Assembly: GCA_051744245.1 (NCBI GenBank)
Contig: JBNJCV010000001.1
Coordinates: 1 to 59,029, forward strand
DNA length: 59,029 bases
Source of the DNA: Actinomycetota bacterium
Lineage (GTDB): Bacteria; Actinomycetota; Humimicrobiia; Humimicrobiales; Humimicrobiaceae
Reading direction: 5' to 3'
Below the pieces are notes generated by a model. That model saw nothing but the letters and a program-made list of their open reading frames with translations, made no database searches and was not told the origin of the DNA. The position numbers and the translations under genes were made by a program. This document shows positions 28,571 through 58,914 of the stretch, piece by piece; position 1 is the stretch's first letter; every line of letters starts with the position of its first letter.

Positions 28571-30523
28571 ATGGAAAACCAGAAAAAATATCAAGTCAAA
28601 TTTCTTCCAACCAATAAAACAGCCACTTTTAAATACGGGTATAATTTAAGGCAAGCAATTCTTGATTCAGGCATAGAGATAGAATCTTCGTGTGGGGGCG
28701 TTGGCACTTGTGGCAAGTGCAGGGTCCAGATAAAGGAAGGAAAGCCAGAAACAAAAAAAAGCAAATTTATTTCGGAAACAGAAGAAAAAGAAGGCTTTGT
28801 TCTATCCTGCCTTACTAAAATTACGGATGACCTGGTGGTATTTATACCTGAACAGAAAAAGGCCAGGGCAATAATAGATAAGGGCAAACTAGCTGAATCT
28901 TCAGGAGTCTATGCAGCGGTAAGCAAGGATGAGTTTGAGGAAGCTGAAATTGATCCCTGGATTAAGAAGGCAGAACTTGAAGTGGAAGAGCCATCCCTAA
29001 GCTATGGGACTAGCGACCTTTACAGGTTTAAAAAAGCGGTAAAAGAAAAATTTGAAATAAAGGACTGCATTATCCCTATTGACGTTATAAGGGAGCTGCC
29101 AGACAAACTGAGAAAAGAAAATTGGAAAGTTACAGTTACCATAGACCTTAACCGGAAACTGGTTATGAACGTGGAGGCGGGCAAAAGCAGCGAAGAATTG
29201 TATGGGGTGGCATTAGACATTGGAACTACAACCATTGTGATGTATCTGGTTGACTTAGAGGATGGAAAAATTGTTGGAAGCAACTCTGAATACAATCCCC
29301 AGATCAGGTTCGGTGAGGACATTATAAATAGGATTGTATATGCCAACAAGGAGGACGGGCTAAAGAAGCTAAATGAAGTGGTAGTCGACTCTATAAATAA
29401 CCTTGTGTGGAGGCTTTTGCTTAACACCCATGTTGAGCCTGATAATATAGTTTCTATTGTGGTTTCTGGAAATTCTACCATGATGCACCTGTTTTACCGG
29501 GTGCCTCCTAAATATATAAGGGAAGAGCCTTATGTGACAGTGGCTAATAGGTTTTCTGACTGCCGGGCCAGGGAACTGGGGATAAAGCATGTCGGAAATG
29601 CTTTTGTGTTTGCCGTACAGGGGGTAGCAAGCTACCTTGGCGGGGATATCACTTCAGGAGTTCTTGCTACGGGAATGGGCAAAAAAAAGGACCTAGCCCT
29701 TTTTATAGATTTAGGCACAAATGGCGAGCTGGTAGTGGGAAACTCAGAGTGGATGATGGGTTGTTCATGCTCTGCTGGCCCTGCATTTGAAGGCGGGGGA
29801 GTAAAATGCGGAACCCGGGCAGTCGAAGGGGCTATCCAGAAAGTATGGATAGACCAGGAAACCTACAAAGCAGAGGTAGGGGTGATTGGCGGAGGAAAGC
29901 CCAGGGGAATATGCGGTTCCGGCCTTATCGATGTTATAGGGGAGATGTACCTGAAAGGGGTTATAGACAGAAAAGGGAAATTTAATAAAAATATCGGTAA
30001 CGAGTATCTAAAATGTGTTGAAAAGGATTGCCTGTATATCCTGGTTGACAGCAAGGACAGTGCAGACGGGAAAGAAATATATATAAGTGAAGTTGATATA
30101 GATAATTTGATGAGGGCTAAAGCGGCGGTTTATGCAGGGATAAAGACATTGCTGGAGGAAGTGGACTTAAGCGTTTATGACCTGGACAAAGTTTATTTAG
30201 CCGGGGGCTTGGGCAAGAAATTAAATATAGGGAATGCAGTGGTTATAGGAATGCTACCGGATATAAATGTAAATAAATATTACTTTTTGGGAAATACTTC
30301 TATTACTGGGGCATATCTGGGCTTGCTGTCATCTAAAAAATATACCGAAACTATTGAAATTGCTGATGCCCTTACCTATGTGGAATTAAGCGTTAACATG
30401 AAATTCATGGACAGGTATGTGGCAGGGCTTTTCTTCCCTTATACTGACCTTACAGATTTTCCAACGGTTGAAGAACTTATTTTTTCATTAGATAATAAAA
30501 ACAGGAGTAGAAAAGAAAAATAA
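28571..30523 (+). CDS. acsV: Corrinoid activation/regeneration protein (RACo/AcsV-type: 2Fe-2S ferredoxin plus ASKHA ATPase)
   Basis: N-terminal plant-type ferredoxin motif CGGVGTCGKCRV. ASKHA motifs are LDIGTTT and IDLGTNGE. 650 aa. Heads the acs cluster. Confidence 0.85.
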   Translation: MENQKKYQVKFLPTNKTATFKYGYNLRQAILDSGIEIESSCGGVGTCGKCRVQIKEGKPETKKSKFISETEEKEGFVLSCLTKITDDLVVFIPEQKKARAIIDKGKLAESSGVYAAVSKDEFEEAEIDPWIKKAELEVEEPSLSYGTSDLYRFKKAVKEKFEIKDCIIPIDVIRELPDKLRKENWKVTVTIDLNRKLVMNVEAGKSSEELYGVALDIGTTTIVMYLVDLEDGKIVGSNSEYNPQIRFGEDIINRIVYANKEDGLKKLNEVVVDSINNLVWRLLLNTHVEPDNIVSIVVSGNSTMMHLFYRVPPKYIREEPYVTVANRFSDCRARELGIKHVGNAFVFAVQGVASYLGGDITSGVLATGMGKKKDLALFIDLGTNGELVVGNSEWMMGCSCSAGPAFEGGGVKCGTRAVEGAIQKVWIDQETYKAEVGVIGGGKPRGICGSGLIDVIGEMYLKGVIDRKGKFNKNIGNEYLKCVEKDCLYILVDSKDSADGKEIYISEVDIDNLMRAKAAVYAGIKTLLEEVDLSVYDLDKVYLAGGLGKKLNIGNAVVIGMLPDINVNKYYFLGNTSITGAYLGLLSSKKYTETIEIADALTYVELSVNMKFMDRYVAGLFFPYTDLTDFPTVEELIFSLDNKNRSRKEK

Positions 30524-30525
30524 TT

Positions 30526-31284
30526 ATGGGTAAAAGCATAGCAGTAGCCGGAAAAGGCGGCACAGGAAAAACTACTATAAGCGGACTTCTTATAAGGAAT
30601 TTGGCTGATAATAATAAAGTTCCCATACTTGCCTTAGATGCAGATCCCAATTCAAATCTCAATGAGGTACTGGGGGTAGAGGTTAAGTCTACTGTAGGGA
30701 TGCTGCGGGAAGAGTTTAAAAAAAATGCCCCTAGGATGGCAAAGGGAATTTACAAAGATCAGCTGGTGGAGATGAACATACAGGAAGCTTTAGTGGAGAA
30801 TAAGAAATATGACCTTCTGGTAATGGGCAGGGGTGAAGGCCCGGGATGCTATTGTTATGCGAATTCACTGTTTAGGAAATATATAGAGATGCTGCAGGAT
30901 AATTATAATTTCATTGTTATGGATAATGAAGCGGGAATGGAGCATTTAAGCAGGAGAACTACCCAGGATATTGATTACCTGTTGATTGTTTCTGATCCTT
31001 CCCCCAGGGGGATTATGACGGCAGCAAGAATAAGGGACCTGGCTATGGACCTGGAACTGAAGGTAAAAGATATTTTTTTAATAGTAAACAGGGTAAAAGA
31101 TAAGTTGGATAAGAGATTAGAGGGGCAAATTGAGGACAATAATCTTAAGTTGCTCTCAGTGCTAAACTATGATGATGATATTTTTGAAATGGACATATCC
31201 TCAGGCTCTGTTTTTAGCCTGCCTGCTTCAAGCAGTTCTTTAGGCAAGTCTGAAGATATTTTAAAACAGTTGGATATTATATAG
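30526..31284 (+). CDS. cooC: CODH/ACS nickel-insertion ATPase CooC/AcsF
   Basis: Deviant Walker A GKGGTGKTT and CxC metal motif GPGCYCYAN. Confidence 0.9.
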   Translation: MGKSIAVAGKGGTGKTTISGLLIRNLADNNKVPILALDADPNSNLNEVLGVEVKSTVGMLREEFKKNAPRMAKGIYKDQLVEMNIQEALVENKKYDLLVMGRGEGPGCYCYANSLFRKYIEMLQDNYNFIVMDNEAGMEHLSRRTTQDIDYLLIVSDPSPRGIMTAARIRDLAMDLELKVKDIFLIVNRVKDKLDKRLEGQIEDNNLKLLSVLNYDDDIFEMDISSGSVFSLPASSSSLGKSEDILKQLDII

Positions 31285-31408
31285 TTTAATTAATCAAAAT
31301 GACTGAACTTTTTTATAAAAGATGATAAAATGATTTAATTTGTAAGATAACTTACAACGCATTGTGTATTATGTAACTATTTAGTAACAATATAAAAGGG
31401 GGAGAAAA

Positions 31409-32344
31409 TTGAGTTTTAAATTCCCAAAAAATGAATATGCAGGCAAGATCGCATCTGTAAATTTAAAGTCCGGAACAGTGGTAGGTGGTGATGAAGCCTT
31501 ACCTTTTTACAGTTTTGAGGGTAATATTCCAAACAAGCCTATAATTGCGATGGAAGTTTATGACAGCAAACCGGAGGGCTGGCCTGAAAGCGTGGATAAG
31601 TATTTTAATGATGTTTACGATGATCCGGTAAAATGGGCAAAAAAATGTATAGATGAGTATGGGGCAGAGAGTATCTGCTTGCAGCTTAAAAGTGTTAATC
31701 CGGATTCTGGGGATATGAAACCCCAGGAAGCTGCTGAAATTGTAAAAAAGGTAAGTGATGCTATAGAAAAGCCCTTGATTGTATATGGGGATGGTCCCAT
31801 GGAAAAAATTGAAGATGTAATGAAAAAAGTATCAGAGGTAAACCAGGATTCCGATATCCTTATAGGATGGGTGGAAGAAGATTACTATAAGACAGTGGCA
31901 GCAGCTTGTATGGGCTATAATAATAATGTCATATCTGTAAATTCAATGGATGTAAACATTGCCAAGCAGCTTAATATCCTGTTAACCCAGCTGGGGCTTC
32001 CAGCAGAAAGAATTGTGATGGACCCATCAACTGCCAGCATAGGATATGGTATTGAATATTGTTATTCCAGCATGGAAAGGCTCAAAATTGCTGCATTGCT
32101 CCAGGACGATAAAATGACCCAAATGCCATTGATAGTTAATTTAGCCCCCCAGGTTTGGAAGGTAAAGGAAGTAAAAGAAAGTGAAGAGGATTATCCTGAG
32201 TGGGGTGATCTGGAACAAAGAGGCATAAACTGGGAATCTATTTCTGCAATGGCGACTCTTGTATCGGGTGCAAATATTGTGGTTATGAGGCACCCTAAGG
32301 CTGTGAGCATGGTAAAAGAAGTTATAAATAATTTAATACAATAA
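31409..32344 (+). CDS. acsD: Corrinoid iron-sulfur protein small subunit (delta)
   Basis: 311 aa, TTG start with AAAGGGGGAG RBS. AcsD-like TIM-barrel sequence, positioned directly upstream of acsA/acsB. Confidence 0.85.
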   Translation: MSFKFPKNEYAGKIASVNLKSGTVVGGDEALPFYSFEGNIPNKPIIAMEVYDSKPEGWPESVDKYFNDVYDDPVKWAKKCIDEYGAESICLQLKSVNPDSGDMKPQEAAEIVKKVSDAIEKPLIVYGDGPMEKIEDVMKKVSEVNQDSDILIGWVEEDYYKTVAAACMGYNNNVISVNSMDVNIAKQLNILLTQLGLPAERIVMDPSTASIGYGIEYCYSSMERLKIAALLQDDKMTQMPLIVNLAPQVWKVKEVKESEEDYPEWGDLEQRGINWESISAMATLVSGANIVVMRHPKAVSMVKEVINNLIQ

Positions 32345-32360
32345 TTTTAAGTATAGAAGG

Positions 32361-34319
32361 ATGGTGCAAGGCACGATGAAATCCAAAGATAAAGATAAAA
32401 AACAAAGAAGTGAAGATAAGGCGGTAAATGAGATTCTGGAAAACTTGGAAGAAGGAGTGGAAACTGTTTTTGACCGCTCTGATTCCATGAAATGCTGCCC
32501 TATTGGTTCGGGCGTTTCCGGAATTTGCTGCAAGAATTGCTCAATGGGACCTTGCAGGGTCAGGGAAGGAAAAACTGGCTTATGCGGGGCGACCATGGGA
32601 ACAATAGCAGCCAGGAATCTGGCAAGGCATATTGCGGCAGGAGCAGCTGCCCACTCTGACCATGGTAGAGACCTCGCTGTGCTGTTAAAAGATGTGGCTG
32701 AAGGTAATGCAGAGGGGCTTAGGATAAAAGATGAGATGAAGCTTTTAAGGTTTGCTAAAAACCTTGGAATAGAAACAAAGGACAAAGAAGTAAACGAAAT
32801 AGCCATAGAGGCTGCCGAAAAGTCACTTTCGCTATTTGGCCAGCAGGAAGGCGAGATAGACTTAATAAAGATTGCTCCCAAGAAAAGGCAGGAGAAGTGG
32901 AAAAAATATAATATTGTTCCCAGGGGTGTGGACAGGGAGGTTGTTGAAACCCTCCACCGTACTCACATGGGTGTGGATCAGGATGCAGAACATATTTTAG
33001 ACCATGCTCTGCGCAATGCATTATCTGATGGCTGGGGCGGTTCAATGATTGCCACGGAGATAACAGATATACTTTTTACTACACCAAAAGCATTACCGGC
33101 AAAAACTAATTTAGGCATGCTGTCTGAAGATGAAGTAAATATAGTTGTGCATGGCCATGAACCCACCTTGTCTGAAGTTATTGCAGAGATGGCCAATAAT
33201 GAAGAGATGGTTAAATATGCAAAAGAAAAAGGGGCTAAAGGAATTAATGTTGTGGGTATATGCTGTACAGCCAATGAAGTGCTCATGAGGCAGGGCATTG
33301 CCCCTATCGGAAATTTCTTGTCACAGGAGCTGGCCATCATGACTTCGGCAGTAGAGGCTATGGTGGTTGACATACAATGCATAATGCAGTCTATAAGCAA
33401 GGTGGCAGAGAAATACCACACAAAATTAATTACCTCATCTGCAAAGTGCAAGATACCCGGGGCAACCCATATGGAATTTGATGAAAAGAAAGCCCCGACT
33501 ATTGCCAAGGAAATCATAAAGAATGCAATCGATAACTTTAAAAATAGAAAAGAACCAAAAATTCCCCAGGTTACATCAGACCTTGTTGCAGGGTTTTCCC
33601 ATGAGTATATTAGATATATGCTGGGAGGCAGGTTTAGGGAATCATTCAGGCCTTTAAATGATGGAATAATAGATGGAAGGATACAGGGCGTGGTAGCTGT
33701 TGTGGGCTGCAATAATGCAAGGCATCCCCAGGATAAGTACCATAACTTTTTGACCAGGGAACTTATAAAGCGGGATTATTTGGTAGTTCAGACAGGCTGC
33801 GGCGCATTGGCTTCTGCAAAGTGTGGCCTGATGATGCCTGAAGCAATGGAAGAAGTTGGTGACGGCTTGAGGTCAATTTGTGAAGCAGTAGGTATACCTC
33901 CGGTACTGCATCTCGGCTCTTGTGTGGATAATTCAAGAATACTTACTATAGTTTCTGAAGTGGTAGAAGAAGGGGGACTGGGCGAAGACATAAGCGACTT
34001 GCCGGTGGCAGGAATTGCCCCTGAATGGATGAGCGAGAAAGCATTATCCATTGGCTCCTATTTTGCAGCCAGCGGAGTTTATGTGGCTTTTAGCGGAGAG
34101 CCCATACCTGTTACTTCCAGCCAGGAAGTGGTTGATATAATGACCAAGGGCTGGGACCAGAAATTCGGAGGAATGCTGGAGTACGTGCCTGATATTGAAG
34201 AGTTATTAAATAAAGTAATAAATCATATCCAAGCTAAAAGAAAAGCGCTAAAAATTGATGTTAAGAAAGAAAGAGTGCTTTTCGACATGGAAGCAAGGAG
34301 GGAATTAGGAAATGTCTAA
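32361..34319 (+). CDS. acsA: Carbon monoxide dehydrogenase catalytic subunit
   Basis: N-terminal Cys motifs (MKCCPIGSGVSGICCKNCSMGPCR, GLCGA). C-cluster region motifs are HGHEP, GICCTANE, VGCNN and GSCVDN. An alternative start exists at 32376. Confidence 0.93.
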   Translation: MVQGTMKSKDKDKKQRSEDKAVNEILENLEEGVETVFDRSDSMKCCPIGSGVSGICCKNCSMGPCRVREGKTGLCGATMGTIAARNLARHIAAGAAAHSDHGRDLAVLLKDVAEGNAEGLRIKDEMKLLRFAKNLGIETKDKEVNEIAIEAAEKSLSLFGQQEGEIDLIKIAPKKRQEKWKKYNIVPRGVDREVVETLHRTHMGVDQDAEHILDHALRNALSDGWGGSMIATEITDILFTTPKALPAKTNLGMLSEDEVNIVVHGHEPTLSEVIAEMANNEEMVKYAKEKGAKGINVVGICCTANEVLMRQGIAPIGNFLSQELAIMTSAVEAMVVDIQCIMQSISKVAEKYHTKLITSSAKCKIPGATHMEFDEKKAPTIAKEIIKNAIDNFKNRKEPKIPQVTSDLVAGFSHEYIRYMLGGRFRESFRPLNDGIIDGRIQGVVAVVGCNNARHPQDKYHNFLTRELIKRDYLVVQTGCGALASAKCGLMMPEAMEEVGDGLRSICEAVGIPPVLHLGSCVDNSRILTIVSEVVEEGGLGEDISDLPVAGIAPEWMSEKALSIGSYFAASGVYVAFSGEPIPVTSSQEVVDIMTKGWDQKFGGMLEYVPDIEELLNKVINHIQAKRKALKIDVKKERVLFDMEARRELGNV

Positions 34320-36492
34320 AGTTATAGCAACCAGTGCCATTAAAGGCGCGCATAAAATTGTCAACAAGGCAGAAGAAAGGTTAAAGGAGGTTATAGAGGA
34401 AAAAGGTGAAGACCAGAAATTGGAATTCCCCGATACTGGCTATTTTTTACCAATAATTTACAGCATGGCTGGAATTAAAGTAGAAAAACTTGGCGATTGC
34501 CATGAAGTAATTACAGAAGCAAAAAATTTGCTTCCCCAGGTTCCAGGCGACAGGATCTGGATTCCTTATCTGGGGGGCACCCTGGATGCAGGGATTGCCA
34601 CACTGTGGGCTGAAGAAATTATTGAGGCTATAAAATATTTAGATGACCCTCCTCCTGAGGAAGGTATCTGGCTAGGAGCGGCTGAAGATAAAATAATAAG
34701 GGAACGTGGTATTGAATTTGTAGATGGAACCGCCCCTGGTTTTGCGGCTTGTGTTGGCGCTGCCTCTAGCAATGAGATGGCAGTCCAGATAGCAAGAGAG
34801 CTCCAGGAGAAAAATATTTATGTTTTTATAAGCGGGTCAACTAATGGCGTATCCATGGCAGAACAGCTAGCAGAAGAGGGAGTGGACCTTGGATGGGAAA
34901 CCAGGTTGGTGCCTTTTGGAAAAGATATAACTGCAACCATTTATTCCCTTGGTTTTGCAGCCAGGGCGGCGATGAGCTTTGGAGGCGTGCAGCCAGGCGA
35001 TTACAGGAGGATGCTGCTTTACAATAAGACCAGGGTATTTGCTTTTGTACTGGCATTGGGTGAAGTTGATGATGAAAAATATGCAAATGCGGCTGGCGCT
35101 ATAAATTTTGGCTTCCCCACAATTGCTAATACCTCCATACCGGAAATACTGCCCAGGGGAGTTTGTACTTATGAACATGTAGTCTCAAATATAGATGAAG
35201 AGGAAATGGTAACCAAGGCAATTGAAGTCAGAGGGCTTAAGGTTACTGTTGAAAAGGTTGATGTCCCTGTTCCATTTGGTCCTGCATTTGAAGGTGAGAG
35301 GGTAAGAAAAGAAAATACATATGTGGAATTTGGTGGAAATAAAAGTGATGCTGTTGAATTGCTGGTTATGGCAGATTCATCCAAAGTGGAAGATGGAAAA
35401 ATCGAAGTCATAGGGCCTGAAGTAGATGATGCAAAAGAAGGAGAAGCCCTTCCACTTGGTATACTGGTAGAAGTATCCGGAAGGAAGATGCAGGAAGATT
35501 TTGAGCCGGTTATGGAAAGGCAGATCCATTACTTTCTAAATTACCCCTCAGGGGTATTCCATATGGGCCAGAGGGATATATCCTGGGTCAGGTTCTCAAA
35601 AGATGCAGTAAATAACGGTTTTAAAATAAGGCATATCGGAACAGTGGTCCATGCTAAAATGCATTCAGATTTTGGAAAGATATTGGATAAGGTACAGGTA
35701 AAAATTTATACCAATCCTGAAGATGTTTTAGCCTTACAGAAAAAAGCAAGAAAGATATTTAAGACTAGGGATGAGCGTATGGGAGCCCTAACCGATGAGG
35801 CTGTAGATACTTTTTACTCATGCACCTTATGCCAGTCATTTGCTCCCAATCACGTGTGTGTTGTGTCTCCTGAAAGGCCAGGGCTTTGCGGCGCTTATAA
35901 CTGGCTTGATTGCAGGGCTGCCTATGAAATTAATCCTGCAGGCCCCAATCAGCCGGTTAAAAAAGGCGAGACTATTGAAGAAGAACTTGGTATATGGAAA
36001 GGGGTAAATGAGTTTGTATACAAGGCTTCAAACCAGAGTCTGGAATCATTTTCTGCATATTCTATGATGAAGGACCCAATGACTTCATGCGGGTGCTTTG
36101 AAGTTATAGCTACCATCCTTCCTTCAACTAATGGAATTATGGCCGTAAACAGGGAACACGGGGGAATGACCCCTTGTGGAATGAAGTTTTCAACGATAGC
36201 CGGAATGGTTGGTGGCGGAATACAGACCCCGGGCTTTATAGGTATTAGCAAGTTCTTTATAGGGTCAAAGAAATTCATAAGGGCTGATGGAGGATTAAAA
36301 AGGCTGGTATGGATGCCCAAGGAATTAAAAGAAGAGATAAGGGATTTACTTGAAGAGAGGGCCAAAGAAATAGGCATGGAAGATTTAGTAGATAAAATTG
36401 CTACAGAAGAGGAAGCCCAGAGTGAGGAAGAAGTGCTGGAGTGGGCCCAGAAAGTAAACCACCCTGCTTTGGAAATGGAACCAATGATGTAA
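34312..36492 (+). CDS. acsB: CO-methylating acetyl-CoA synthase (A-cluster subunit)
   Basis: 726 aa. A-cluster ligands occur in CTLCQSFAPNHVCVVSPERPGLCGA and the Cys-Gly-Cys motif MTSCGCFE. Overlaps the acsA stop by 8 nt. Confidence 0.95.
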   Translation: MSKVIATSAIKGAHKIVNKAEERLKEVIEEKGEDQKLEFPDTGYFLPIIYSMAGIKVEKLGDCHEVITEAKNLLPQVPGDRIWIPYLGGTLDAGIATLWAEEIIEAIKYLDDPPPEEGIWLGAAEDKIIRERGIEFVDGTAPGFAACVGAASSNEMAVQIARELQEKNIYVFISGSTNGVSMAEQLAEEGVDLGWETRLVPFGKDITATIYSLGFAARAAMSFGGVQPGDYRRMLLYNKTRVFAFVLALGEVDDEKYANAAGAINFGFPTIANTSIPEILPRGVCTYEHVVSNIDEEEMVTKAIEVRGLKVTVEKVDVPVPFGPAFEGERVRKENTYVEFGGNKSDAVELLVMADSSKVEDGKIEVIGPEVDDAKEGEALPLGILVEVSGRKMQEDFEPVMERQIHYFLNYPSGVFHMGQRDISWVRFSKDAVNNGFKIRHIGTVVHAKMHSDFGKILDKVQVKIYTNPEDVLALQKKARKIFKTRDERMGALTDEAVDTFYSCTLCQSFAPNHVCVVSPERPGLCGAYNWLDCRAAYEINPAGPNQPVKKGETIEEELGIWKGVNEFVYKASNQSLESFSAYSMMKDPMTSCGCFEVIATILPSTNGIMAVNREHGGMTPCGMKFSTIAGMVGGGIQTPGFIGISKFFIGSKKFIRADGGLKRLVWMPKELKEEIRDLLEERAKEIGMEDLVDKIATEEEAQSEEEVLEWAQKVNHPALEMEPMM

Positions 36493-36525
36493 TAAAATTT
36501 GCAAATACGAAATAAGGAGTGAGCA

Positions 36526-48467: not shown

Positions 48468-48497
48468 TAAAAAGTTTTAAAAAACAGGGGGTAAGAT

Positions 48498-49916: not shown

Positions 49917-49945
49917 AAACCTGATTTCGAAAGGAGTTCTAACCG

Positions 49946-50329: not shown

Positions 50330-50343
50330 GGCGGAATTAGCTT

Positions 50344-50892: not shown

Positions 50893-50894
50893 TT

Positions 50895-52175: not shown

Positions 52176-52225
52176 ATTATAACTTTTATAAATCAAAATT
52201 TAAGTTGGATACGGAGACTTTAAAC

Positions 52226-53602
52226 ATGGAAGAGAAACAAGTAAAAAAAATAGAAGAAATAGTAGGAAAAGATTCGGCAATAACTGAAGTAGAAGACCGT
52301 ATTGCCTATGGCTATGATTCAACCAGGCTTGAATATCTCCCTGACATAATTGTCAAGGTTAAAAACACAGAACAAGTAAGTAATATATTAAAATTTGCCA
52401 ATGAATACAGTATCCCGGTTACCCCCCGGGGAGCTGCTACCGGGCTTAGCGGCGGCTGCTTGCCGGTTAAAGGAGGGATACTTCTGGTAATGGTGGGCAT
52501 GAACAAAATCTATGATGTCAACCCCGTGGACTTGCTGGTAGATGTTGAGGCAGGGGTAATAACCGAGGCCGTGGACAAGAAGGTAGCGCCTTTTGGTTTG
52601 TTTTATCCACCTGATCCCGGAAGCTTGAGCAGTTCCACTATTGGCGGTAATATAGCTGAGAATGCGGGAGGCTTGAGGGGCTTAAAATATGGTGTTACCA
52701 AGGATTATGTAAATGGAATGGAAGTGGTGCTTCCCACGGGGGAAGTAACCCAGCTGGGCACCAGAACTGTCAAAGGAGTTACCGGATACAACCTTAAGGA
52801 TTTAATAGTGGGCTCTGAAGGAACATTGGGAGTAGTCACCAGGGCTACCCTTAACCTGCTGCCTATTCCCCCCGAAAGGGCAAGTTTGCTTGCATTGTTT
52901 TCAAAGCTTACAGATGCTGCCAAAGCAGTAAGGGGTATAGTCTCTGAAGGGGTAATTACTTCTACTCTTGAGATTATAGATAATGTTACCATTAATGCCA
53001 TTGAGGATTACCTGAAGGTAGGATTGGACAGAGATACAGGAGCAATGCTGCTAATTGAAGTAGATGGCCAGAAAGGGGCCGTGGAGATTGAAGCAGAAAT
53101 AGTTAAAAAAGTATGCAAAAAAAATAATGCTACTTCCTGTGAACTAGCTACTTCCGGCAGGCAGAGGGACTCTTTATGGGCTGCAAGGAGGGCTGCGCTA
53201 TCATCACTTGCCAGGGTTAAGCCTTCAACTATACTTGAGGATGCCACCATACCCAGAAGCAAGATAGTGGAGCTGGTAGAAGCGGTAAACAGGGTTGCTG
53301 AAAAATACGGGTTGAGGATTGGTACTTTTGGCCACGCGGGAGATGGAAATTTGCACCCCACCATACTTACTGATTTAAGGATAGAAAAGGAGGCTGAAAA
53401 GGTTGAAAAAGCAGTGGAGGAAATTTTTGAAGAGACAGTAAAGCTGGGAGGAACTTTATCCGGTGAGCATGGTATTGGGATAACCAAAGCAAAGTATTTA
53501 AAGATGGAAGTTCAGCCGGAGGCTTTTGAGCTTATGAAGAGGGTAAAAAAGGCTTTTGATCCTAATAATATACTTAATCCCGGTAAAATGAGTTTTGAAT
53601 AA
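52226..53602 (+). CDS. FAD-linked oxidase, GlcD / D-lactate dehydrogenase-like
   Basis: FAD-binding PCMH domain (PVTPRGAATGLSGG) and C-terminus GTLSGEHGIG..FDPNNILNPGK. ATG at 52226 lies 9 nt after GGAG; the ORF track has TTG at 52205. Confidence 0.88.
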   Translation: MEEKQVKKIEEIVGKDSAITEVEDRIAYGYDSTRLEYLPDIIVKVKNTEQVSNILKFANEYSIPVTPRGAATGLSGGCLPVKGGILLVMVGMNKIYDVNPVDLLVDVEAGVITEAVDKKVAPFGLFYPPDPGSLSSSTIGGNIAENAGGLRGLKYGVTKDYVNGMEVVLPTGEVTQLGTRTVKGVTGYNLKDLIVGSEGTLGVVTRATLNLLPIPPERASLLALFSKLTDAAKAVRGIVSEGVITSTLEIIDNVTINAIEDYLKVGLDRDTGAMLLIEVDGQKGAVEIEAEIVKKVCKKNNATSCELATSGRQRDSLWAARRAALSSLARVKPSTILEDATIPRSKIVELVEAVNRVAEKYGLRIGTFGHAGDGNLHPTILTDLRIEKEAEKVEKAVEEIFEETVKLGGTLSGEHGIGITKAKYLKMEVQPEAFELMKRVKKAFDPNNILNPGKMSFE

Positions 53603-53629
53603 AAATTATAATATAGTTAAGGCAGAGCA

Positions 53630-54814
53630 ATGGTTAAAACTAAAAAAACAAATATATCGGCAAAGGCAGATGAACTGTTTAACTGCAGCAGGTGCGGAAA
53701 TTGCCTGGCGGTTTGCCCGATTTATAAAAATACTTTAGATGAGAGTGCGTCTCCCAGGGGCAAGCTCAGCTTAATTGAGGCTTTAAATAATGGGGTAATT
53801 GGGGCTACAGGCAGGCTTTCTGAAAAATTATATACCTGTACCCTTTGCAATTATTGCACTAATGAGTGCCCCAGCGGGATAGCGGTAAAGGAACTGTTTG
53901 AGACAATAAGGCTGGACCTGGTTGACAGTCACAGGTATCCGGAAGTATTGGACATGTTAAAGCAGAGAATATCCAGCGGGAAAAATGTTACTTTTGATAC
54001 CAATGAGGGAAGGCTGGACTGGGTAAAGCAGCTTCCCGGCAAAAGTCCACAGGATTTTTTAAAAGAGAGGGCTGAAGTAATATATTTTGTGGGATGCGTT
54101 TCATCTTTTTCACCCAGGACTTTCTCCATACCCAGGGCTATAGTTAAGCTTTTAGAGCATGCGGATGTTAACTTTGGACTTTTAGGGGAAGATGAATGGT
54201 GCTGTGGTTTTCCCCTCCTTAGTTCAGGAATGAGGGATGAGGCCACAGAGCTTGCTAGCTATAATATCAAGAAAGTGGAAGAGGCGGGAGCAAAAACCCT
54301 TATAACTTCTTGCCCTACCTGTTTCCATACCTGGAAGGATGAATACCCGGAGATAGCGGACAGAAAGCAGCCTTTTAAGGTGATGCACATCTCAGAATAT
54401 TTACTGGATCTTGTAAAGAAAAATAAGTTAAAGCTAAATCCCCTGGATTTGTCTGTAACCTACCATGACCCTTGTGACTTGGGCAGAAATTCAGGAGTCT
54501 ATGAAGCCCCTAGAGAGTTAATAAAAAGCATTCCCGGCATCAAGTTTGTAGAGCTGGAATTAAACCGTGAAATGGCAAATTGCTGCGGGGGCGGGGGGAA
54601 TCTGGAATCAATAAATGCGCCCCTGGCAGCAAGCATAGCAAACAGCAAGGCAGAAGAAATTATCGGCACAGGAGTAGATGCGGTGATATCTGCCTGCCAG
54701 CAGTGCGAGCGTACCATTGCTACAGCACTGAAGAAGAAAAAAAAGGAATTAAAGAAGAAAATCAAAGTATGGGACGTGGCAGAACTTTTGTTAAAAAGTG
54801 TTGAATCTAAATAA
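53630..54814 (+). CDS. Fe-S oxidoreductase with two CCG domains (GlcF/HdrD/LutA-like)
   Basis: 2x[4Fe-4S] motifs CSRCGNCLAVCP and CTLCNYCTNECP. CCG-type motifs are FVGCVSSF..CCGFP and YHDPCDLGR..CCGGGG. Confidence 0.85.
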   Translation: MVKTKKTNISAKADELFNCSRCGNCLAVCPIYKNTLDESASPRGKLSLIEALNNGVIGATGRLSEKLYTCTLCNYCTNECPSGIAVKELFETIRLDLVDSHRYPEVLDMLKQRISSGKNVTFDTNEGRLDWVKQLPGKSPQDFLKERAEVIYFVGCVSSFSPRTFSIPRAIVKLLEHADVNFGLLGEDEWCCGFPLLSSGMRDEATELASYNIKKVEEAGAKTLITSCPTCFHTWKDEYPEIADRKQPFKVMHISEYLLDLVKKNKLKLNPLDLSVTYHDPCDLGRNSGVYEAPRELIKSIPGIKFVELELNREMANCCGGGGNLESINAPLAASIANSKAEEIIGTGVDAVISACQQCERTIATALKKKKKELKKKIKVWDVAELLLKSVESK

Positions 54815-54829
54815 ATGGAGGTAAAAAAA

Positions 54830-55258
54830 ATGGAAATAGAAGGCTATAATTTTTTAGAAGGCTTGTATTATGACAAAAACCATTTCTGGGCTAAAGAAGA
54901 AGGTGGAAATGTTGTGGTAGGGGCCACTGATTTTTTCCAGAAGCTGGCTGGCGACATTGTTTTTATTGAGCTGCCCATGGAAGGTACAAAGGTGGAGCAG
55001 GGTAAAAGCTTTTCTTCACTGGAATCAGGTAAGTGGGTAGGAAAAGTCTTTGCCCCGGTTTCAGGGGAAATAGTGGAGGTAAACGAAGATTTAGAAGATG
55101 AGCCAGAACTTATAAATGAGTCCTGCTATGATGAGGGCTGGATAGTAAAAATAAAGCCTTCAGACCTTGATTCCGAGCTGGGAAACCTCATGGAGACAGG
55201 GCCGGAGCTGGAGGAATTTATAAAGAAAGAAGAAGCAGAACATGGGCAAAAAGATTAA
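54830..55258 (+). CDS. gcvH: Glycine-cleavage H-type lipoyl carrier protein
   Basis: GcvH fold with the lipoyl-Lys context SLESGKWVGKVFAPVSGEIVEVN and DEGWIVKIK. ATG at 54830 lies 8 nt after GGAGG. An in-frame ATG at 54815 abuts the upstream stop. Confidence 0.88.
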   Translation: MEIEGYNFLEGLYYDKNHFWAKEEGGNVVVGATDFFQKLAGDIVFIELPMEGTKVEQGKSFSSLESGKWVGKVFAPVSGEIVEVNEDLEDEPELINESCYDEGWIVKIKPSDLDSELGNLMETGPELEEFIKKEEAEHGQKD

Positions 55259-57083
55259 GATAGAAGTAGAGCCCATTGGAAAAAGGATTTACCTAAGAGA
55301 GCCTGCTAATGGATTGGAGGCTTTAACTGACAATGGCATAGGCATAAAATCGGTTTGTGGAGGCAAAGGCACTTGCGGCAAGTGCAGGATAATAATACTG
55401 AACCAAAAAGACATACCCTTAAATGCCCAGGAGAAAAAGGTACTGACCGCAGATGAGATAAAGAAGGGGGTAAGGCTTGCCTGCCAGCAAACATTCAGTA
55501 GCGATTTAGATATTTATGTACCTTCCTCATCACTTACCCAAGAGCAGAAGCTGCAGGTCATGGGGCAGGAGGAAAAAATAGAAGTTGACCCCGTGCTGGA
55601 CAAATACCACCTGAAGCTGGAGCAAGCCACATTGGAGGACATGGCTCCTGATTTTGACAGGATGAAGGCAGCTTTAAAGAAAGATCATTCTGCCAGTGCT
55701 GAAAATATAGATTTCAGTGCTTTAAAAGAGATGCCCGGGGCAATAAGGCAAAACAGCTGGGAAATTACTGTAACCCTGAGGGAAAGGGAAATAATTGGTG
55801 TAGAAGGCGGAGATAAGGCTGGGAAAAAATACGGGTTGGCAATAGATTTAGGCACCACCAAGATTGCATTACTGCTGGTAGACCTTTCAAGCGGCAAGAC
55901 GGTTGCCAGCAAGGGCATAATGAATCCACAAATTTCTTATGGTGAAGATGTCATGAGCAGGCTTAACTTTGCCATATCAGAAAAAGGCAACACCAAAAAG
56001 ATCCAGAAGGCGGCTACCGATGATATAAACAGTGCCTTGGAAGAGTTGTGTAAAAAAGAAGGCATAAAGGCAAGGGAAATACTGGAGATGACCGTGGTTG
56101 GCAATACTGCTATGCACCACCTGTTTTTAGGATTGCCGGTAAGGCCCCTTAGCTTTTCTCCGTTTGTGGCTCTTAGCGGGCAGCCTTTGAATATAAAGGC
56201 AAGGGAGGTTGGGATTAACATATCCCCAGGAGCTTATATTTACCTGCTTCCCCCTATAGCAGGATATGTGGGGTCTGATCATCTTGCCATGCTTTTGGCC
56301 ACTGGCATCCAGGAGCAGAAAGGAAATGTAATCGGGATTGATATCGGAACTAATACAGAGATTTGCCTTAAAACGGCAAAAAGTTTAACCAGCGTATCTA
56401 CAGCTTCCGGACCAGCATTTGAGGGAGCTCATATAAAGCATGGGATGCGGGCAGCCCCCGGAGCCATTGAAAGGGTGGTAATAGAGCCGGAAAGCTATAA
56501 GCCGGTTATACAAACTATTGGAGATAGGAAACCGGTGGGTATTTGCGGTTCTGGAATACTTGACGCTGTGGCCGAGCTGAGGAAGGCAGAGCTTATAAAT
56601 ACCAGGGGCAAGTTTGACCAGGATTCTAAATTTCTCAGAAAGGACGGCAAGGGCAATTTAGAGTACTTGCTGAAAGACAAGGATGATGGCAGTGAAATTA
56701 TTTCCATAAATCAGAAGGATATATCAGAGATACAGCTGGCCAAGGGGGCAATGAGGGCAGGTATAGAAATACTGATGGCAAATGCAGGGATAACCTTTGA
56801 TAAGATAGATAAAATAATTATTGCTGGCGCTTTTGGCTCTTATATAGATCCTAAGAATGTTGTAAATATAGGGATGTTTCCCAATGTTGCAATTAAAAAA
56901 ATAGTTCAGGTTGGAAACGCAGCAGGGGTAGGAGCCAAGATGGTGCTAATTTCCAGGGAAAAACGGCTGGAGGCTGAAAGGCTAGCCAGAAAAGTAAATT
57001 ACCTGGAGCTTACCACCCATCCGCAATTTAATGACCATTTTGTAAAAAGCATGCAATTTCCTGAACCTGATAGTATAATTTGA
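55242..57083 (+). CDS. Second RACo-type corrinoid reductive activase (2Fe-2S ferredoxin plus ASKHA ATPase)
   Basis: CGGKGTCGKCRI ferredoxin motif with IDLGTTK and IDIGTNTE ASKHA motifs, 613 aa. Paralog of the ORF at 28571. Overlaps the gcvH end by 17 nt. Confidence 0.85.
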   Translation: MGKKIKIEVEPIGKRIYLREPANGLEALTDNGIGIKSVCGGKGTCGKCRIIILNQKDIPLNAQEKKVLTADEIKKGVRLACQQTFSSDLDIYVPSSSLTQEQKLQVMGQEEKIEVDPVLDKYHLKLEQATLEDMAPDFDRMKAALKKDHSASAENIDFSALKEMPGAIRQNSWEITVTLREREIIGVEGGDKAGKKYGLAIDLGTTKIALLLVDLSSGKTVASKGIMNPQISYGEDVMSRLNFAISEKGNTKKIQKAATDDINSALEELCKKEGIKAREILEMTVVGNTAMHHLFLGLPVRPLSFSPFVALSGQPLNIKAREVGINISPGAYIYLLPPIAGYVGSDHLAMLLATGIQEQKGNVIGIDIGTNTEICLKTAKSLTSVSTASGPAFEGAHIKHGMRAAPGAIERVVIEPESYKPVIQTIGDRKPVGICGSGILDAVAELRKAELINTRGKFDQDSKFLRKDGKGNLEYLLKDKDDGSEIISINQKDISEIQLAKGAMRAGIEILMANAGITFDKIDKIIIAGAFGSYIDPKNVVNIGMFPNVAIKKIVQVGNAAGVGAKMVLISREKRLEAERLARKVNYLELTTHPQFNDHFVKSMQFPEPDSII

Positions 57084-57088
57084 TCCTA

Positions 57089-57919
57089 ATGAATTTGAAT
57101 TTTTACAAGAAGAAAAAAAATATTTTTATATTAACCATGTCAATACTTTTAGCAGTGTTGATTTTGTTTATCATGTCGCCAGCTATAGGCTGCAGGGTTA
57201 TAGAAATGGGAAATAATTCAACCGGATCCCAACAGCAGGCCGGAGACCTTGCCGGTAAAGATAGTTGGACAGTGGGAACAGATGCTTCTTACCCGCCCTT
57301 TGAATTTTTAAACAAGGAAGGAAATATCGAAGGGTTTGATATTGATATTATAAACAAGATTGCCACAGATATGGAAAAGAAAGTAACTATTGAAAATATT
57401 GCCTACGATGCTCTATTTATCAACCTGCAGGAAGGGAAAATAGATTTAATAATTTCAGCCATTACCGCCACGGAGGATAAAAAAGACCAGGTTGATTACA
57501 GCCAGTCTTATTATGTGCTTGAGTATACCCTTTTGGTTTTAAGCGATACAGAAATAAAGCTAAAAGAAGAACTTGCCAATAAGGAAATAGGGATCCTGGA
57601 TATTGCCAGCGAGAGCCTGGGTGAGGATATACTTTCAAATTACAGGATACAGCCTTACAAGGATATAAAGGTAATGTCAGAGGATTTAAGGAATAGAAAA
57701 ATTGACGGGGCCATAGTTTCAATTCCCATAGCAGTAAACCTTTTGGGGGAAGTGGAGAAACCTTATAAAGTAATTGAGGTTTTTAAGTCAAGCAAGGAAT
57801 TTGTTATAGCGCTGAGGAAAAATTCAGGAGTGCTGGAAGAAATAAACGGGGCTATAGAAGATATGCATGAAAACAACACTTTTGTTGAGATCTATGATAA
57901 GTGGTTTTTTCTTGACTGA
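57089..57919 (+). CDS. Family-3 (amino-acid type) ABC substrate-binding lipoprotein, orphan
   Basis: Signal peptide with lipobox (LILFIMSPAIGC). SBP_bac_3-like motifs are GTDASYPPFEF and GFDIDI. No permease or ATPase gene is nearby. Confidence 0.8.
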   Translation: MNLNFYKKKKNIFILTMSILLAVLILFIMSPAIGCRVIEMGNNSTGSQQQAGDLAGKDSWTVGTDASYPPFEFLNKEGNIEGFDIDIINKIATDMEKKVTIENIAYDALFINLQEGKIDLIISAITATEDKKDQVDYSQSYYVLEYTLLVLSDTEIKLKEELANKEIGILDIASESLGEDILSNYRIQPYKDIKVMSEDLRNRKIDGAIVSIPIAVNLLGEVEKPYKVIEVFKSSKEFVIALRKNSGVLEEINGAIEDMHENNTFVEIYDKWFFLD

Positions 57920-57936
57920 TTTTTTGCTTAGTTTTT

Positions 57937-57996
57937 TGGTAAATTATTAACCAGTAATGTTATAATATTTACATATTATTATCACTATAGTTATTA
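57937..57996 (+). promoter_or_regulatory. Promoter-like hexamers plus an imperfect 18-bp palindrome upstream of acsE
   Basis: TTGGTA (57937-57942), 18 nt, TATAAT (57961-57966). TTATCACTATAGTTATTA (57979-57996) follows, with 7 of 9 pairs complementary and core ACTATAGT, abutting the RBS. Confidence 0.35.
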
Positions 57997-58006
57997 GGGG
58001 GAAAAC

Positions 58007-58804
58007 ATGCTAATAGTTGGCGAAAATATTAGCGTTGCTTCGCAAGCAGTGTCAGATGCTATTAAGAACAGGGATGCAGGTCCGATAGTGGATATGGCCA
58101 AAGAGCAAAAAGAAGCAGGAGCACATTATGTGGATGTAAACATAGGTCCTGCAACCAAAAAAGGCGATGAGCTCATGCAGTGGGTGGTAAAAACTATCCA
58201 GGCAGAAGTGGACGTCCCTTTAGCTTTGGACACCAAGAATGTTGAGGCTATTGAGGCTGGACTTGAGGTACACGAAGGCCAGGCAATGATTAATTCTGTT
58301 ACCGGGGATAAGGATAAGCTGGATGCTCTTATGCCTCTTGCTGCAAAATATAATAGCAAGATTGTAGGGATTGCCTTAACCAAGAAGGGTGTTCCCCCCG
58401 ATGTTGATAGCAGGGTAGAGATTATAATGGATATAGTAAATTCTGCCATGGAGCACGGGTTACCTTTTGAGAACCTGTATTTGGACCCGGTGGCATTGCC
58501 GGTAGCAGTATTGCAGGAACAGGTGCACAATTGTGTCGAGGCAGTAAAAGTTTTCAAGCAGTTAGAGGAGCTTATGGGATTACCTGAGTCTCCAAGGACT
58601 ATAGTGGGGCTTAGCAATGTTTCGCAGTCTTCACCGCCTGAGCTAAAAAGCCTGCTTAACCGGACTTATCTGGTAATACTTCTTAGCAATGGGCTGGATG
58701 CGGCAATAATTGATCCCCTGGATGAAGAGATGGTAAAAGCAATTAAAACTTTTGATATCCTTACTAACAGGATTTTATATGCTCATTCTTATCTGGATAG
58801 ATAA
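58007..58804 (+). CDS. acsE: Methyltetrahydrofolate:corrinoid iron-sulfur protein methyltransferase
   Basis: Pterin-binding TIM barrel. It is collinear with the Moorella MeTr sequence as I recall it (MLI.GE.I, D.N.GPA, AMINS, LY.DP, GLSNVSQ, GLDAAI.D). Confidence 0.9.
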   Translation: MLIVGENISVASQAVSDAIKNRDAGPIVDMAKEQKEAGAHYVDVNIGPATKKGDELMQWVVKTIQAEVDVPLALDTKNVEAIEAGLEVHEGQAMINSVTGDKDKLDALMPLAAKYNSKIVGIALTKKGVPPDVDSRVEIIMDIVNSAMEHGLPFENLYLDPVALPVAVLQEQVHNCVEAVKVFKQLEELMGLPESPRTIVGLSNVSQSSPPELKSLLNRTYLVILLSNGLDAAIIDPLDEEMVKAIKTFDILTNRILYAHSYLDR

Positions 58805-58853
58805 ATAAAAAATGTGATTGCAAAATATTATACTTCTATGATATATTGGATTT

Positions 58854-58914
58854 GGAGGAGAGTTTTTAAGAAGTGGCGTCCAGGCTTTTTAAAAGATACT
58901 CTCCTCCTTTTTTT
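58854..58914 (+). terminator. Strong intrinsic terminator after acsE
   Basis: GGAGGAGAGT (58854-58863) pairs perfectly with ACTCTCCTCC (58898-58907). The stem is extended by TTTTAA/TTAAAA and followed by TTTTTTT. Confidence 0.8.

Follow-up and report, generated by a model that had tools for sequence, protein, structure and literature searches.

A predicted MIC4-type metabolosome locus with a putative lactate-oxidation module nested in the Wood–Ljungdahl gene cluster of Candidatus Humimicrobiales

A 59,029-nt stretch (hereafter the window) from a metagenome-assembled genome (MAG) of an Actinomycetota member of Candidatus Humimicrobiaceae, class Humimicrobiia, carries at positions 28571–58914 the genes for a bacterial microcompartment (BMC) inside a cluster of Wood–Ljungdahl (WL) pathway genes. 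We assign this BMC to the MIC4 type from the published catalogue description and from its orthology to a catalogued member. At a probability of roughly 0.55, we propose that a MIC4 metabolosome together with a lactate-oxidation module has long been resident between folD and RACo2/acsE in Candidatus Humimicrobiales, where it would work in the manner laid out in the Discussion.

Results

Conserved nesting of the microcompartment genes

Pfam scans upheld all gene calls between 28571 and 58914 (Table 1). A preceding sequence-only reading of the window had the WL genes running head-to-tail on the plus strand up to 40603, with the first BMC-P vertex gene (P1) 38 nt behind folD, which Pfam and the recomputed junctions bear out; it had also placed the BMC between proximal and distal WL genes, and the same order recurs in 45 related loci. 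The genes for carbon monoxide dehydrogenase/acetyl-CoA synthase (CODH/ACS; AcsA and AcsB), the corrinoid iron-sulfur protein (CoFeSP; AcsC and AcsD), its methyltransferase (MeTr; AcsE), CooC and RACo make up a full set in the window by Pfam, with PDB matches for RACo and MeTr, while the methyl branch is represented within these 59 kb by fhs and folD, with metF, metV and fdh not found there. Housekeeping genes (obg, proBA, nadD, rsfS, leuS, comEA/EC, holA, murJ, lepA) lie upstream of 28.5 kb, and the WL/BMC cluster is therefore part of the chromosomal core.

Related loci (L numbers) were drawn from two sources, look-ups of homologues of the BMC aldehyde dehydrogenase (AldDH) and a scan with an AldDH alignment, with one genome per species, and the window proteins were mapped on all of them by tblastn. 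AldDH identity breaks between 57% and the next-best value of 45%, and the 45 loci with at least 57% identity, which comprise 34 species representatives and 11 further assemblies, all derive from Actinomycetota MAGs, including Ca. Humimicrobium oleiphilum UBA1414 and Ca. Calidifonticultor. In these 34 species-level genomes and 11 further assemblies, the BMC locus lies between folD and RACo2/acsE of the WL cluster. When only informative loci are counted for each junction, the second tandem shell gene (T2) leads into larA in 24/24 species representatives and 11/11 further assemblies, and among the species representatives larA is followed by glcD in 20 of 21, glcF by gcvH in 17/17 and gcvH by RACo2 in 16/16. 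The gene for a solute-binding protein (SBP) stands behind RACo2 in every informative BMC-bearing locus (13/13 species representatives and 7/7 further assemblies) and is absent from BMC-less loci, and acsE adjoins the SBP gene in 4 of 6 species representatives. Upstream, folD-P1-P2 is present in the window and in L006, L007, L008, L018, L021, L023 and L032, and P1 and/or P2 stand at the locus edge in L004 and L010. The nesting is thus conserved and no lineage-specific noise, which answers a check that the sequence-only reading had proposed.

Searching with RACo2 retrieved two BMC-less relatives (L092 and L093), whose acsB, acsC, fhs and folD products are 72–85% identical to those of the window, as close as in BMC-bearing relatives. 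Their genes run acsB-acsC-fhs-folD, then a radical SAM gene, blaR1 and blaI on the minus strand, then RACo2 and unrelated sugar-transport genes, and the folD–RACo2 site contains no vertex genes, BMC, larA, glcDF, gcvH, SBP gene or acsE. The blaI-divergent intergenic region on one side and RACo2 on the other are the exact borders of the BMC and lactate genes. Because the BMC-less relatives retain RACo2 next to folD-blaRI, RACo2 belongs to the WL neighbourhood, and we rejected it as a functional BMC gene. In L010, from which acsE and gcvH are gone, RACo2 and the SBP gene stay with the BMC, which had led us to consider that both serve the compartment; the SBP gene may do so.

In a neighbour-joining tree of RACo2 proteins rooted on RACo1, the BMC-less pair nests among BMC-bearing loci in 92 of 100 bootstraps. 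Since the BMC-less relatives fall inside BMC-bearing lineages, the nesting of the BMC in the WL cluster is probably ancestral, and the BMC-less state is more likely to be a deletion than the original condition, a view we hold with moderate confidence given the distant root. A recent horizontal insertion of the BMC block was ruled out by its matching composition and by the clade-wide shared order: the comparison with the flanks that had been suggested earlier gave equal values and no sign of recent transfer, with GC, GC at third codon positions (GC3) and codon usage of the block equal to those of the WL flanks and of housekeeping genes (correlation of relative synonymous codon usage, 0.93–0.97). 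Neither larA, glcDF and gcvH nor RACo and acs genes occur within 10 kb of the outgroup BMC loci (L043–L091), which come from Firmicutes, Bacteroidota, Sericytochromatia and other groups.

At two locus edges we observed candidate mobile elements. A DDE transposase-like open reading frame (ORF; by Pfam) occupies positions 1–1599 of L055 at the edge of the BMC–WL block, which fits the rearranged upstream flank of that locus, and a minus-strand ORF behind the SBP gene of L031 (14765–15514), possibly a mobile-element gene, fits the missing acsE.

Assignment to MIC4 and the encapsulated enzymes

In the 2021 catalogue, MIC4 comprises 15 loci, including some from Actinobacteria, which carry an AldDH with an N-terminal encapsulation peptide, a phosphotransacylase (PTAC), a pfam00596 aldolase, a pfam00871 kinase, a BMC-P triplet, from its green, grey and orange clades, with a fourth copy at times, and a PduS homologue beside a PduT-type trimer with a pore cysteine (Sutter et al.; PMC8217296). 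The window holds the same inventory: an AldDH with encapsulation peptide, PTAC, pfam00596 aldolase, pfam00871-family kinase, four BMC-P genes and PduS beside T1. Furthermore, the Actinobacteria bacterium ADurb.Bin346, listed as MIC4 in the tree file of the catalogue, is our L039, with the order pduL-aldDH-H2-T2-larA and 58% AldDH identity; its contig of only 4.3 kb would hide the gene context. The sequence-only reading knew of no BMC type defined by linkage to CODH/ACS. The type turns out to be rare but named already; the catalogue describes MIC4 as an 'incomplete core' metabolosome without function or NADH recycling route and mentions neither the WL pathway nor lactate racemase in connection with it (PMC8217296).

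The four BMC-P genes are distinct paralogues with 29–51% pairwise identity, which excludes a recent duplication of the two vertex-gene pairs. Both T1 and T2 carry the pore cysteine motif CPGK, and the SLCPGKY motif of T1 resembles what we take to be the ICPGKF motif of PduT. As the sequence-only reading stated, no alcohol dehydrogenase is present in the locus. The best solved relatives of the aldolase are L-fuculose-phosphate aldolases (FucA), while the NCBIfam models for ribulose-1-phosphate aldolase, 3-oxo-tetronate-4-phosphate decarboxylase and FucA match it about equally well and all far below their cut-offs. Its C-terminal extension of ~55 aa ends in an amphipathic, encapsulation-peptide-like helix, and AldDH begins with an amphipathic segment, MAIDEKTVEKIVRSVVDNL, followed by a Ser-rich linker (judged by eye), which is likewise encapsulation-peptide-like. 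The pfam00596 aldolases of PVM and GRM5 compartments process fuculose- and rhamnulose-phosphate (PMC8217296).

Two extensions of compartment proteins matched no Pfam family, namely the ~100-aa C-terminal extension of PduL, which ends in LSPLARDEAKERGIKIY, and the basic, Lys/Gly-rich C-terminal tail of H2. A dhaL/dhaK pair (dihydroxyacetone kinase) lies at 21056–22703, 19 kb upstream of the BMC, and in L022 dhaL/dhaK are found on the minus strand between larA and RACo2, exactly where glcD-glcF-gcvH are missing; these genes may be linked to the triose product of the aldolase.

A lactate module that includes gcvH

The closest structure to the LarA homologue is the broad-spectrum lactate racemase 9EID (378 bits), and the best solved relative of the GlcD-like protein is LctD of Acetobacterium woodii (7QH2_C, 345 bits). 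No ETF genes that could supply an EtfAB partner to this LctD-like subunit were found in the locus; a CCG-domain Fe-S protein is encoded in their place, and Desulfovibrio Dld-II-type enzymes also have such a CCG/HdrD-like partner.

In its distribution, gcvH follows glcD and glcF and not the WL genes. The three are jointly missing, with larA running straight to RACo2, in L004, L010/L011 and L022, which belong to three different clades of the RACo2 tree, and the three genes appear to have been lost together three times independently. Because gcvH was lost jointly with glcD and glcF and is also absent from the BMC-less WL clusters of the same radiation, it behaves in this lineage as part of the dehydrogenase module rather than as an accessory of the WL pathway.

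In lct gene clusters, the D-specific FAD-dependent lactate dehydrogenase needs a racemase for the use of L-lactate (PMC8914356). A FucA-like aldolase would release L-lactaldehyde, the end product of the BMC would then be L-lactate, and a racemase would consequently have a clear role. This role of the racemase is our chief argument for lactaldehyde/lactate chemistry, and larA and the glcD/F-like pair would be logical downstream steps of the BMC, from lactate to pyruvate, rather than miscellaneous passengers.

Two variants of the module were seen among the relatives. On a 39-kb contig (P0196), GcvH and RACo2 form one in-frame fusion protein of 776 aa, a single case that may be a genuine fusion or an assembly frameshift or artefact; the corresponding genes of the window overlap in different frames. 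In L002 (580–3407) and L015, an extra CCG-domain protein with 45% identity to GlcF and two proteins without Pfam matches are encoded between blaI and the kinase gene.

Transcriptional organization

The sequence-only reading placed the distal WL genes probably on the same transcripts as the BMC, and the junction data behind it were reproduced. From deoR to the SBP gene the largest gap is 66 nt (aldolase to H1); ATGA overlaps occur at 43796 and 45692, the latter a 4-nt overlap of the PduS-like gene with T1; glcF and gcvH abut at 54814/54815, unless gcvH starts at the alternative ATG at 54830; gcvH and RACo2 overlap by 17 nt (55242–55258); and the SBP gene starts either at TTG 57080, with a 4-nt overlap, or at ATG 57089, with a 5-nt gap. 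The T2/larA, glcF/gcvH, gcvH/RACo2 and RACo2/SBP junctions are overlaps or gaps of 0–2 nt, and the gap before acsE measures 87 nt. A plus-strand scan of 28571–59029 for hairpins followed by a T-run likewise agreed with the earlier statement, with no terminator-like structure between 43035 and 58854 and a strong one behind acsE at 58854–58914, which folds at −26.3 kcal/mol (z = −2.9) and is not reported by a scanner with a loop limit of 8 nt. Since the non-coding stretches are too short for terminators or, for the most part, promoters, the simplest reading of deoR to SBP would be a single transcription unit of ~15 kb. The genes from deoR to acsE share a strand, short or overlapping junctions and the lack of an internal terminator, as an operon would, and depart from one by a predicted extended −10 promoter element before acsE.

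The promoter-like site upstream of deoR is conserved, as 13 of 15 relatives compared have its −10 block (ACATAAAnT) with AACA repeats, most of them with the TTGACA −35 element, and it is kept even in loci with a rearranged upstream flank; the AACA repeats are a possible DeoR operator. Similarly, TGnTATAAT precedes acsE in 6/6 relatives with acsE at this place, in spacers that have otherwise diverged. A related but weaker TGnTAnAAT motif is found 5' of P1 in L008, L018 and L023 as well as in the window. The 66-nt gap before H1 is AT-rich and contains TTTATAAT. Matches to the promoter consensus were not commoner than in shuffled sequence, so further promoters could go undetected.

Taken together, shared BMC/WL transcripts are best supported for gcvH-RACo2-SBP by the gaps, the overlaps and the lack of a terminator, whereas acsE would be reached by read-through only and, like deoR, has a promoter-like site of its own. 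P1-P2, next to folD, are cut off from the rest of the BMC genes by the minus-strand blaI, which ends 1 nt from the P2 stop codon and breaks colinearity. Judging from this arrangement, P1-P2 are likely transcribed with, or just after, the proximal WL operon, in a transcript that meets the convergent blaI; a DeoR-controlled promoter likely drives the BMC, the lactate genes, gcvH, RACo2 and the SBP gene; and acsE is likely served by read-through and by its own promoter, with all transcripts ending at one terminator.

The blaI of the window lacks a BlaR1 partner, while a Peptidase_M56 neighbour is present in L006, L008, L010, L092 and L093. Alignment of the blaI-divergent intergenic regions yielded one short motif and no clear shared plus-strand promoter, and a conserved motif near the blaI start, TTTATACTATT, is shared with the BMC-less loci L092 and L093. 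Genomes with and without the BMC have the blaI(-R1) island at the same position of the WL cluster, and a BlaR1/BlaI sensor/repressor pair may regulate the distal genes.

Table 1. Features of the studied locus (positions in the window).
Feature	Position	Strand	Evidence or remark
Proximal WL block	28571–40603	+	Pfam
RACo1/acsV	28571–30523	+	541 bits against C. hydrogenoformans RACo structure 3ZYY
cooC	30526–31284	+	Pfam
acsD	31409–32344	+	Pfam
acsA/CODH	32361–34319	+	Pfam
acsB/ACS	34312–36492	+	Pfam
acsC	36526–37875	+	Pfam
fhs	37932–39650	+	Pfam
folD	39680–40603	+	Pfam
Extended −10-like motif	40609–40617	+	TGCTAAAAT; 25 nt upstream of P1; weak evidence
BMC-P vertex protein P1	40642–40917	+	EutN_CcmL, E = 4e-23; 29–38% identical to other three BMC-P
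BMC-P vertex protein P2	40919–41191	+	EutN_CcmL, E = 7e-25; 51% identical to P4
BlaI/MecI-family repressor	41193–41594	−	Penicillinase_R, E = 3e-20; convergent with P2
AT-rich divergent intergenic region, 313 nt	41595–41907	.	Conserved motif CTTATACTATTT at 41651–41662
Butyrate-kinase-family acyl kinase	41908–42978	+	Acetate_kinase Pfam; NCBIfam butyrate kinase 442 bits (cut-off 222)
Promoter-like site	42980–43008	+	TTGACA-17-TAAACT, then AACA-type repeats; upstream of deoR
DeoR-family regulator	43035–43799	+	HTH_DeoR, DeoRC
BMC-P vertex protein P3	43796–44089	+	EutN_CcmL
BMC-P vertex protein P4	44096–44362	+	EutN_CcmL
PduS-like flavin/Fe-S oxidoreductase (RnfC family)	44364–45695	+	Complex1_51K, SLBB, Fer4_17, RnfC_N; TIGR01945 rnfC 250 bits
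PduT-type tandem BMC-T T1	45692–46267	+	Two BMC domains; CPGK pore cysteine, motif SLCPGKY
Class II (FucA-like) aldolase, signature enzyme	46287–47105	+	Aldolase_II (pfam00596), E = 4e-47
BMC-H H1	47172–47447	+	BMC domain; 83–98% identity across relatives
PduL phosphotransacylase	47481–48467	+	PTAC (pfam06130), E = 2e-68; N-terminal segment encapsulation-peptide-like
Aldehyde dehydrogenase (AldDH)	48498–49916	+	Aldedh domain
BMC-H H2	49946–50329	+	BMC domain
Second PduT-type BMC-T T2	50344–50892	+	BMC domains; pore cysteine, CPGK motif
LarA-family nickel-pincer 2-hydroxyacid (lactate) racemase	50895–52175	+	Lar_N, LarA_C
FAD-dependent D-2-hydroxyacid (D-lactate) dehydrogenase, LctD/GlcD-like	52205–53602	+	FAD_binding_4, FAD-oxidase_C
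Fe-S/CCG-domain (HdrD/GlcF/TfrB-like) partner	53630–54814	+	Two CCG, Fer4; TfrB model E = 1e-62; HdrB-like PDB matches
GcvH lipoyl-carrier protein	54815–55258	+	GCV_H; above NCBIfam GcvH cut-off; alternative start 54830
RACo2, divergent paralogue of corrinoid reductive activase	55242–57083	+	Fer2, RACo linker/middle/C-terminal domains; 396 bits against 3ZYY; 33% identical to RACo1
SBP_bac_3 solute-binding lipoprotein	57080–57919	+	Signal peptide, AIGC lipobox-like motif
Extended −10 promoter-like site	57958–57966	+	TGTTATAAT; ~45 nt upstream of acsE
acsE, methyl-tetrahydrofolate:CoFeSP methyltransferase	58007–58804	+	Pterin_bind; 237 bits against C. hydrogenoformans MeTr 2YCI; 75–99% identity among relatives
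Intrinsic terminator	58854–58914	+	GGAGGAGAG...CTCTCCTCC + T7; only strong site in 28571–59029; dG −25.1

Neighbouring genes

Next to the SBP_bac_3 gene, partner genes for an ABC permease or ATPase are absent. Other genes 5' of the 28.5-kb mark, besides dhaL/dhaK, encode a NuoE/NuoF-like module, a DUF1638 protein and two proteins of the FUR family. Within this set (22834–26264 and 27320–27787), a fusion of a FUR domain to a NuoE-like protein comes first, with a NuoF-like protein and a 2Fe-2S/4Fe-4S protein behind it, and the DUF1638 protein and the second FUR-family gene come next, directly 5' of the acs genes; together they resemble an NADH/ferredoxin module in which a regulator is fused in an unusual way. 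Farther upstream, a 157-aa ORF (9835–10308) has an aldehyde dehydrogenase match confined to the central part of the family profile (positions 255–339); it is likely to be a gene fragment and has divergent GntR and DJ-1/PfpI genes as neighbours. Structured RNAs or riboswitches at Rfam gathering thresholds and tRNAs by ARAGORN were not detected.

Discussion

A proposed route from deoxy-sugar to acetate

From gene content and order we infer a route in which substrate, direction of electron flow, co-transcription and WL coupling would fit together as follows. A DeoR-controlled promoter at 42980–43008 would drive the ~15-kb deoR–SBP unit and read on into acsE, which would also use its own extended −10 element. 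Within the shell, the FucA-like aldolase would split a ketose-1-phosphate, likeliest L-fuculose-1-phosphate or L-rhamnulose-1-phosphate, into dihydroxyacetone phosphate and L-lactaldehyde, the encapsulated AldDH would oxidise lactaldehyde to lactyl-CoA with formation of NADH, and the encapsulated PduL would convert lactyl-CoA to lactyl-phosphate. PduL recycles CoA, and PduS and PduT are proposed electron conduits; without an alcohol dehydrogenase, NADH would be re-oxidised by PduS, and electrons would exit through the PduT-type trimers by way of their Fe-S pore. Outside the shell, in the cytosol, L-lactate and ATP would come from the butyrate-kinase-family enzyme, LarA would racemise L- to D-lactate, and the LctD-like flavoenzyme with its CCG partner would oxidise D-lactate to pyruvate, while the flanking WL enzymes would consume reducing equivalents and CO2. 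By stoichiometric arithmetic, fucose or another 6-deoxyhexose would overall give 3 acetate and H2. It is plausible that BMC and WL pathway work together, with the latter as the electron sink for the oxidation of deoxy-sugar via lactate to pyruvate.

Several observations weigh against this proposal. The linkage can be dispensed with, since the same radiation includes WL clusters that carry no BMC; L009, L022, L030, L034 and L055 have a rearranged upstream WL junction, where sugar-acid genes, thiolase/SDR/CoA-transferase genes or a transposase form the flank; and acsE does not adjoin the SBP gene in L010, L031 and L040. Most relatives lack the kinase gene at the locus, and it keeps its position only in the subclade of the window (L002, L004, L012, L015). 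Genes for a fucose or rhamnose isomerase, kinase or transporter were not found in the 59-kb window, nor were larBCE, which serve the LarA cofactor. The substrates of the two lactate enzymes are not fixed by their profile matches, as LarA scores 413 bits against an NCBIfam LarA equivalog cut-off of 460 and the GlcD-like protein is also below its NCBIfam equivalog cut-off. Finally, because deoR and acsE are each preceded by a conserved promoter-like site, expression of the distal WL genes could be independent of BMC transcription.

Alternative explanations

The same BMC-less relatives, broken upstream junctions, displaced acsE genes and separate promoter-like sites at deoR and acsE would also be expected if the arrangement were a historical accident, that is, if a MIC4 locus had inserted once beside folD in an ancestor and had been kept by inertia, with no functional or regulatory relation of BMC to WL and with incidental read-through. 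Aldolase BMC loci of other phyla (MIC4, MUF3-like and others; L043–L091), which have no WL genes, larA or gcvH within 10 kb, fit such a neutral history as well, and we regard it as a serious rival, although its chances are clearly lower than those of a working association. A mere relic is harder to reconcile with a distal order held in informative loci across divergence down to 57% AldDH identity, with minimal spacers and overlapping stop and start codons through RACo2 and the SBP gene, with the lack of a terminator before 58854, with two vertex genes placed right behind folD, and with the in-frame GcvH-RACo2 fusion of one relative. Another view, to our mind rather unlikely, is that the region is a series of separate units (P1-P2 with the proximal WL genes; the kinase gene; deoR with the BMC; the lactate genes; gcvH-RACo2-SBP; acsE), with no co-regulation at all of BMC and distal WL genes. 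The promoter-like motifs at 40609–40617, 42980–43008 and 57958–57966, the last two of them conserved, would suit this division, as would the AT-rich gap before H1 and the possibility that more promoters are hidden in a sequence in which consensus matches are no commoner than by chance; against it speak the overlaps and 0–2-nt gaps from T2/larA to RACo2/SBP, the absence of terminator-like structures from 43035 to 58854, and the fact that larA to SBP leaves no non-coding room for a promoter.

The chemistry could be a different one. If the aldolase cleaved a pentulose- or 5-deoxy-pentulose-1-phosphate, e.g., ribulose-1-phosphate or 5-deoxyribulose-1-phosphate, it would release glycolaldehyde or acetaldehyde, GlcD/GlcF would be a glycolate dehydrogenase, and glyoxylate would pass via glycine and GcvH to C1 units, so that carbon would also reach the WL methyl branch. 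The indiscriminate NCBIfam matches of the aldolase leave space for this, and its top PDB matches include 6BTD, which we take to be the structure of a 5-deoxyribulose-1-phosphate aldolase. The GlcD-like protein reaches 513 bits with the TIGR00387 glcD model and 320 bits with a glycolate oxidase structure, and gcvH is closely tied to glcD and glcF. However, glycolate is achiral and would leave without a role a racemase that is adjacent in 35/35 informative loci, among solved structures the dehydrogenase comes closest to a subunit of a lactate dehydrogenase, and the locus contains no gcvP, gcvT, lpd or aminotransferase gene. We therefore deem glycolate chemistry improbable and favour the lactaldehyde/lactate route.

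An extension of the lactate route concerns GcvH itself. The GlcD-like protein, the GlcF/CCG protein and GcvH could form one system in which, by analogy with sHdr-LbpA, the lipoyl group of GcvH would act as a thiol/disulfide electron carrier for the oxidation of BMC-derived D-lactate and, together with RACo2, would feed reducing power directly into the reductive activation or the operation of the corrinoid/WL machinery. The threefold co-loss of glcD, glcF and gcvH, the abutting glcF/gcvH genes, the overlap or fusion of gcvH with RACo2 and the absence of gcvH from BMC-less WL clusters led us to consider this idea, which we hold to be unlikely. With the lactate/pyruvate couple at about −190 mV and lipoamide at about −290 mV, electrons would have to move uphill from lactate to lipoamide, which calls for some form of coupling or for operation in the opposite direction. 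If true, it would be the first microcompartment genetically and electronically hard-wired to CODH/ACS.

Implications

The locus suggests a function and an NADH recycling route for MIC4, in that the racemase and D-lactate dehydrogenase point to lactaldehyde/lactate chemistry and the flanking WL genes to CO2 reduction as a sink. If this is true, Humimicrobiales would ferment deoxy-sugars homoacetogenically with the help of an organelle, which would change the placement of widespread subsurface and hot-spring Actinomycetota in the carbon cycle, and BMC engineers would gain a natural model of a shell that is connected to an electron sink outside it and does without an internal alcohol dehydrogenase. 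Moreover, gcvH, long unexplained in WL clusters, would in this lineage be reassigned as a partner of the lactate dehydrogenase.

Comparison with known systems

Compared with the MIC4 loci of the catalogue, the window adds larA, the LctD-like/CCG pair, gcvH and the embedding in the acs/fhs/folD cluster, has two of its vertex genes split off by the blaI(-R1) island, and encodes a kinase that belongs with the butyrate kinases. Clostridial MUF3 and related aldolase metabolosomes share the core of AldDH, PTAC, acetate-kinase family enzyme, aldolase with C-terminal encapsulation peptide and PduS/PduT; MUF3-like outgroup loci (L047, L057, L058, L060, L062) show that order with aldolases 48–55% identical to that of the window, but have one BMC-P instead of four, AldDH identities of at most 45%, and no larA, glcDF, gcvH or WL genes within 10 kb. 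The PVM compartments of Planctomycetes/Verrucomicrobia, which serve fucose/rhamnose catabolism, share a DeoR-type regulator with the locus studied here, whereas they occur in other phyla and aerobic hosts and have no link to the WL pathway or lactate racemase.

The combination of a BMC with WL physiology has been shown for the diol/alcohol metabolism of A. woodii, which has a PDU-like BMC; to our knowledge, its BMC genes are not inside the WL cluster. The same idea has been put forward for Atribacteria, where aldehyde oxidation in a BMC was proposed to be redox-balanced via the WL pathway or Rnf, yet that BMC is of the SPU type with a DERA aldolase and is syntenic with rnf rather than placed inside a WL cluster (PMC7542362). 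In the literature searched, we met no BMC nested in a WL cluster, although Jiao et al. 2021 (ISME J) may hold a prior description, and no paper that treats Humimicrobiia and microcompartments together; the study of WL Actinobacteria by Merino et al. 2020 makes no mention of microcompartments. MIC4 was met there only in the catalogue (PMC8217296) and in a human-microbiome survey, and co-mentions of lactate racemase and microcompartments came from unrelated papers only.

The lactate module, for its part, pairs an LctD-like enzyme with a LarA-family racemase as do the lct clusters of acetogens and gut Firmicutes (LctD, EtfAB, LctF; PMC8914356), while it differs from them in having no EtfAB or permease and in having GcvH and a CCG/HdrD-like Fe-S partner as in GlcF and TfrB. 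That a GcvH-like lipoyl protein can act with CCG (Hdr-like) proteins beyond glycine cleavage has a precedent in sulfur oxidisers, namely their sHdr-LbpA system (PMC6067878); it involves other enzymes and a sulfur substrate, no sulfur-transferase genes are present here, and we use the analogy as a lead only. Set against these systems, three features appear to be described here for the first time: the conserved position of the BMC within the WL cluster, the lactate module joined to it, and a gcvH that travels with the dehydrogenase.

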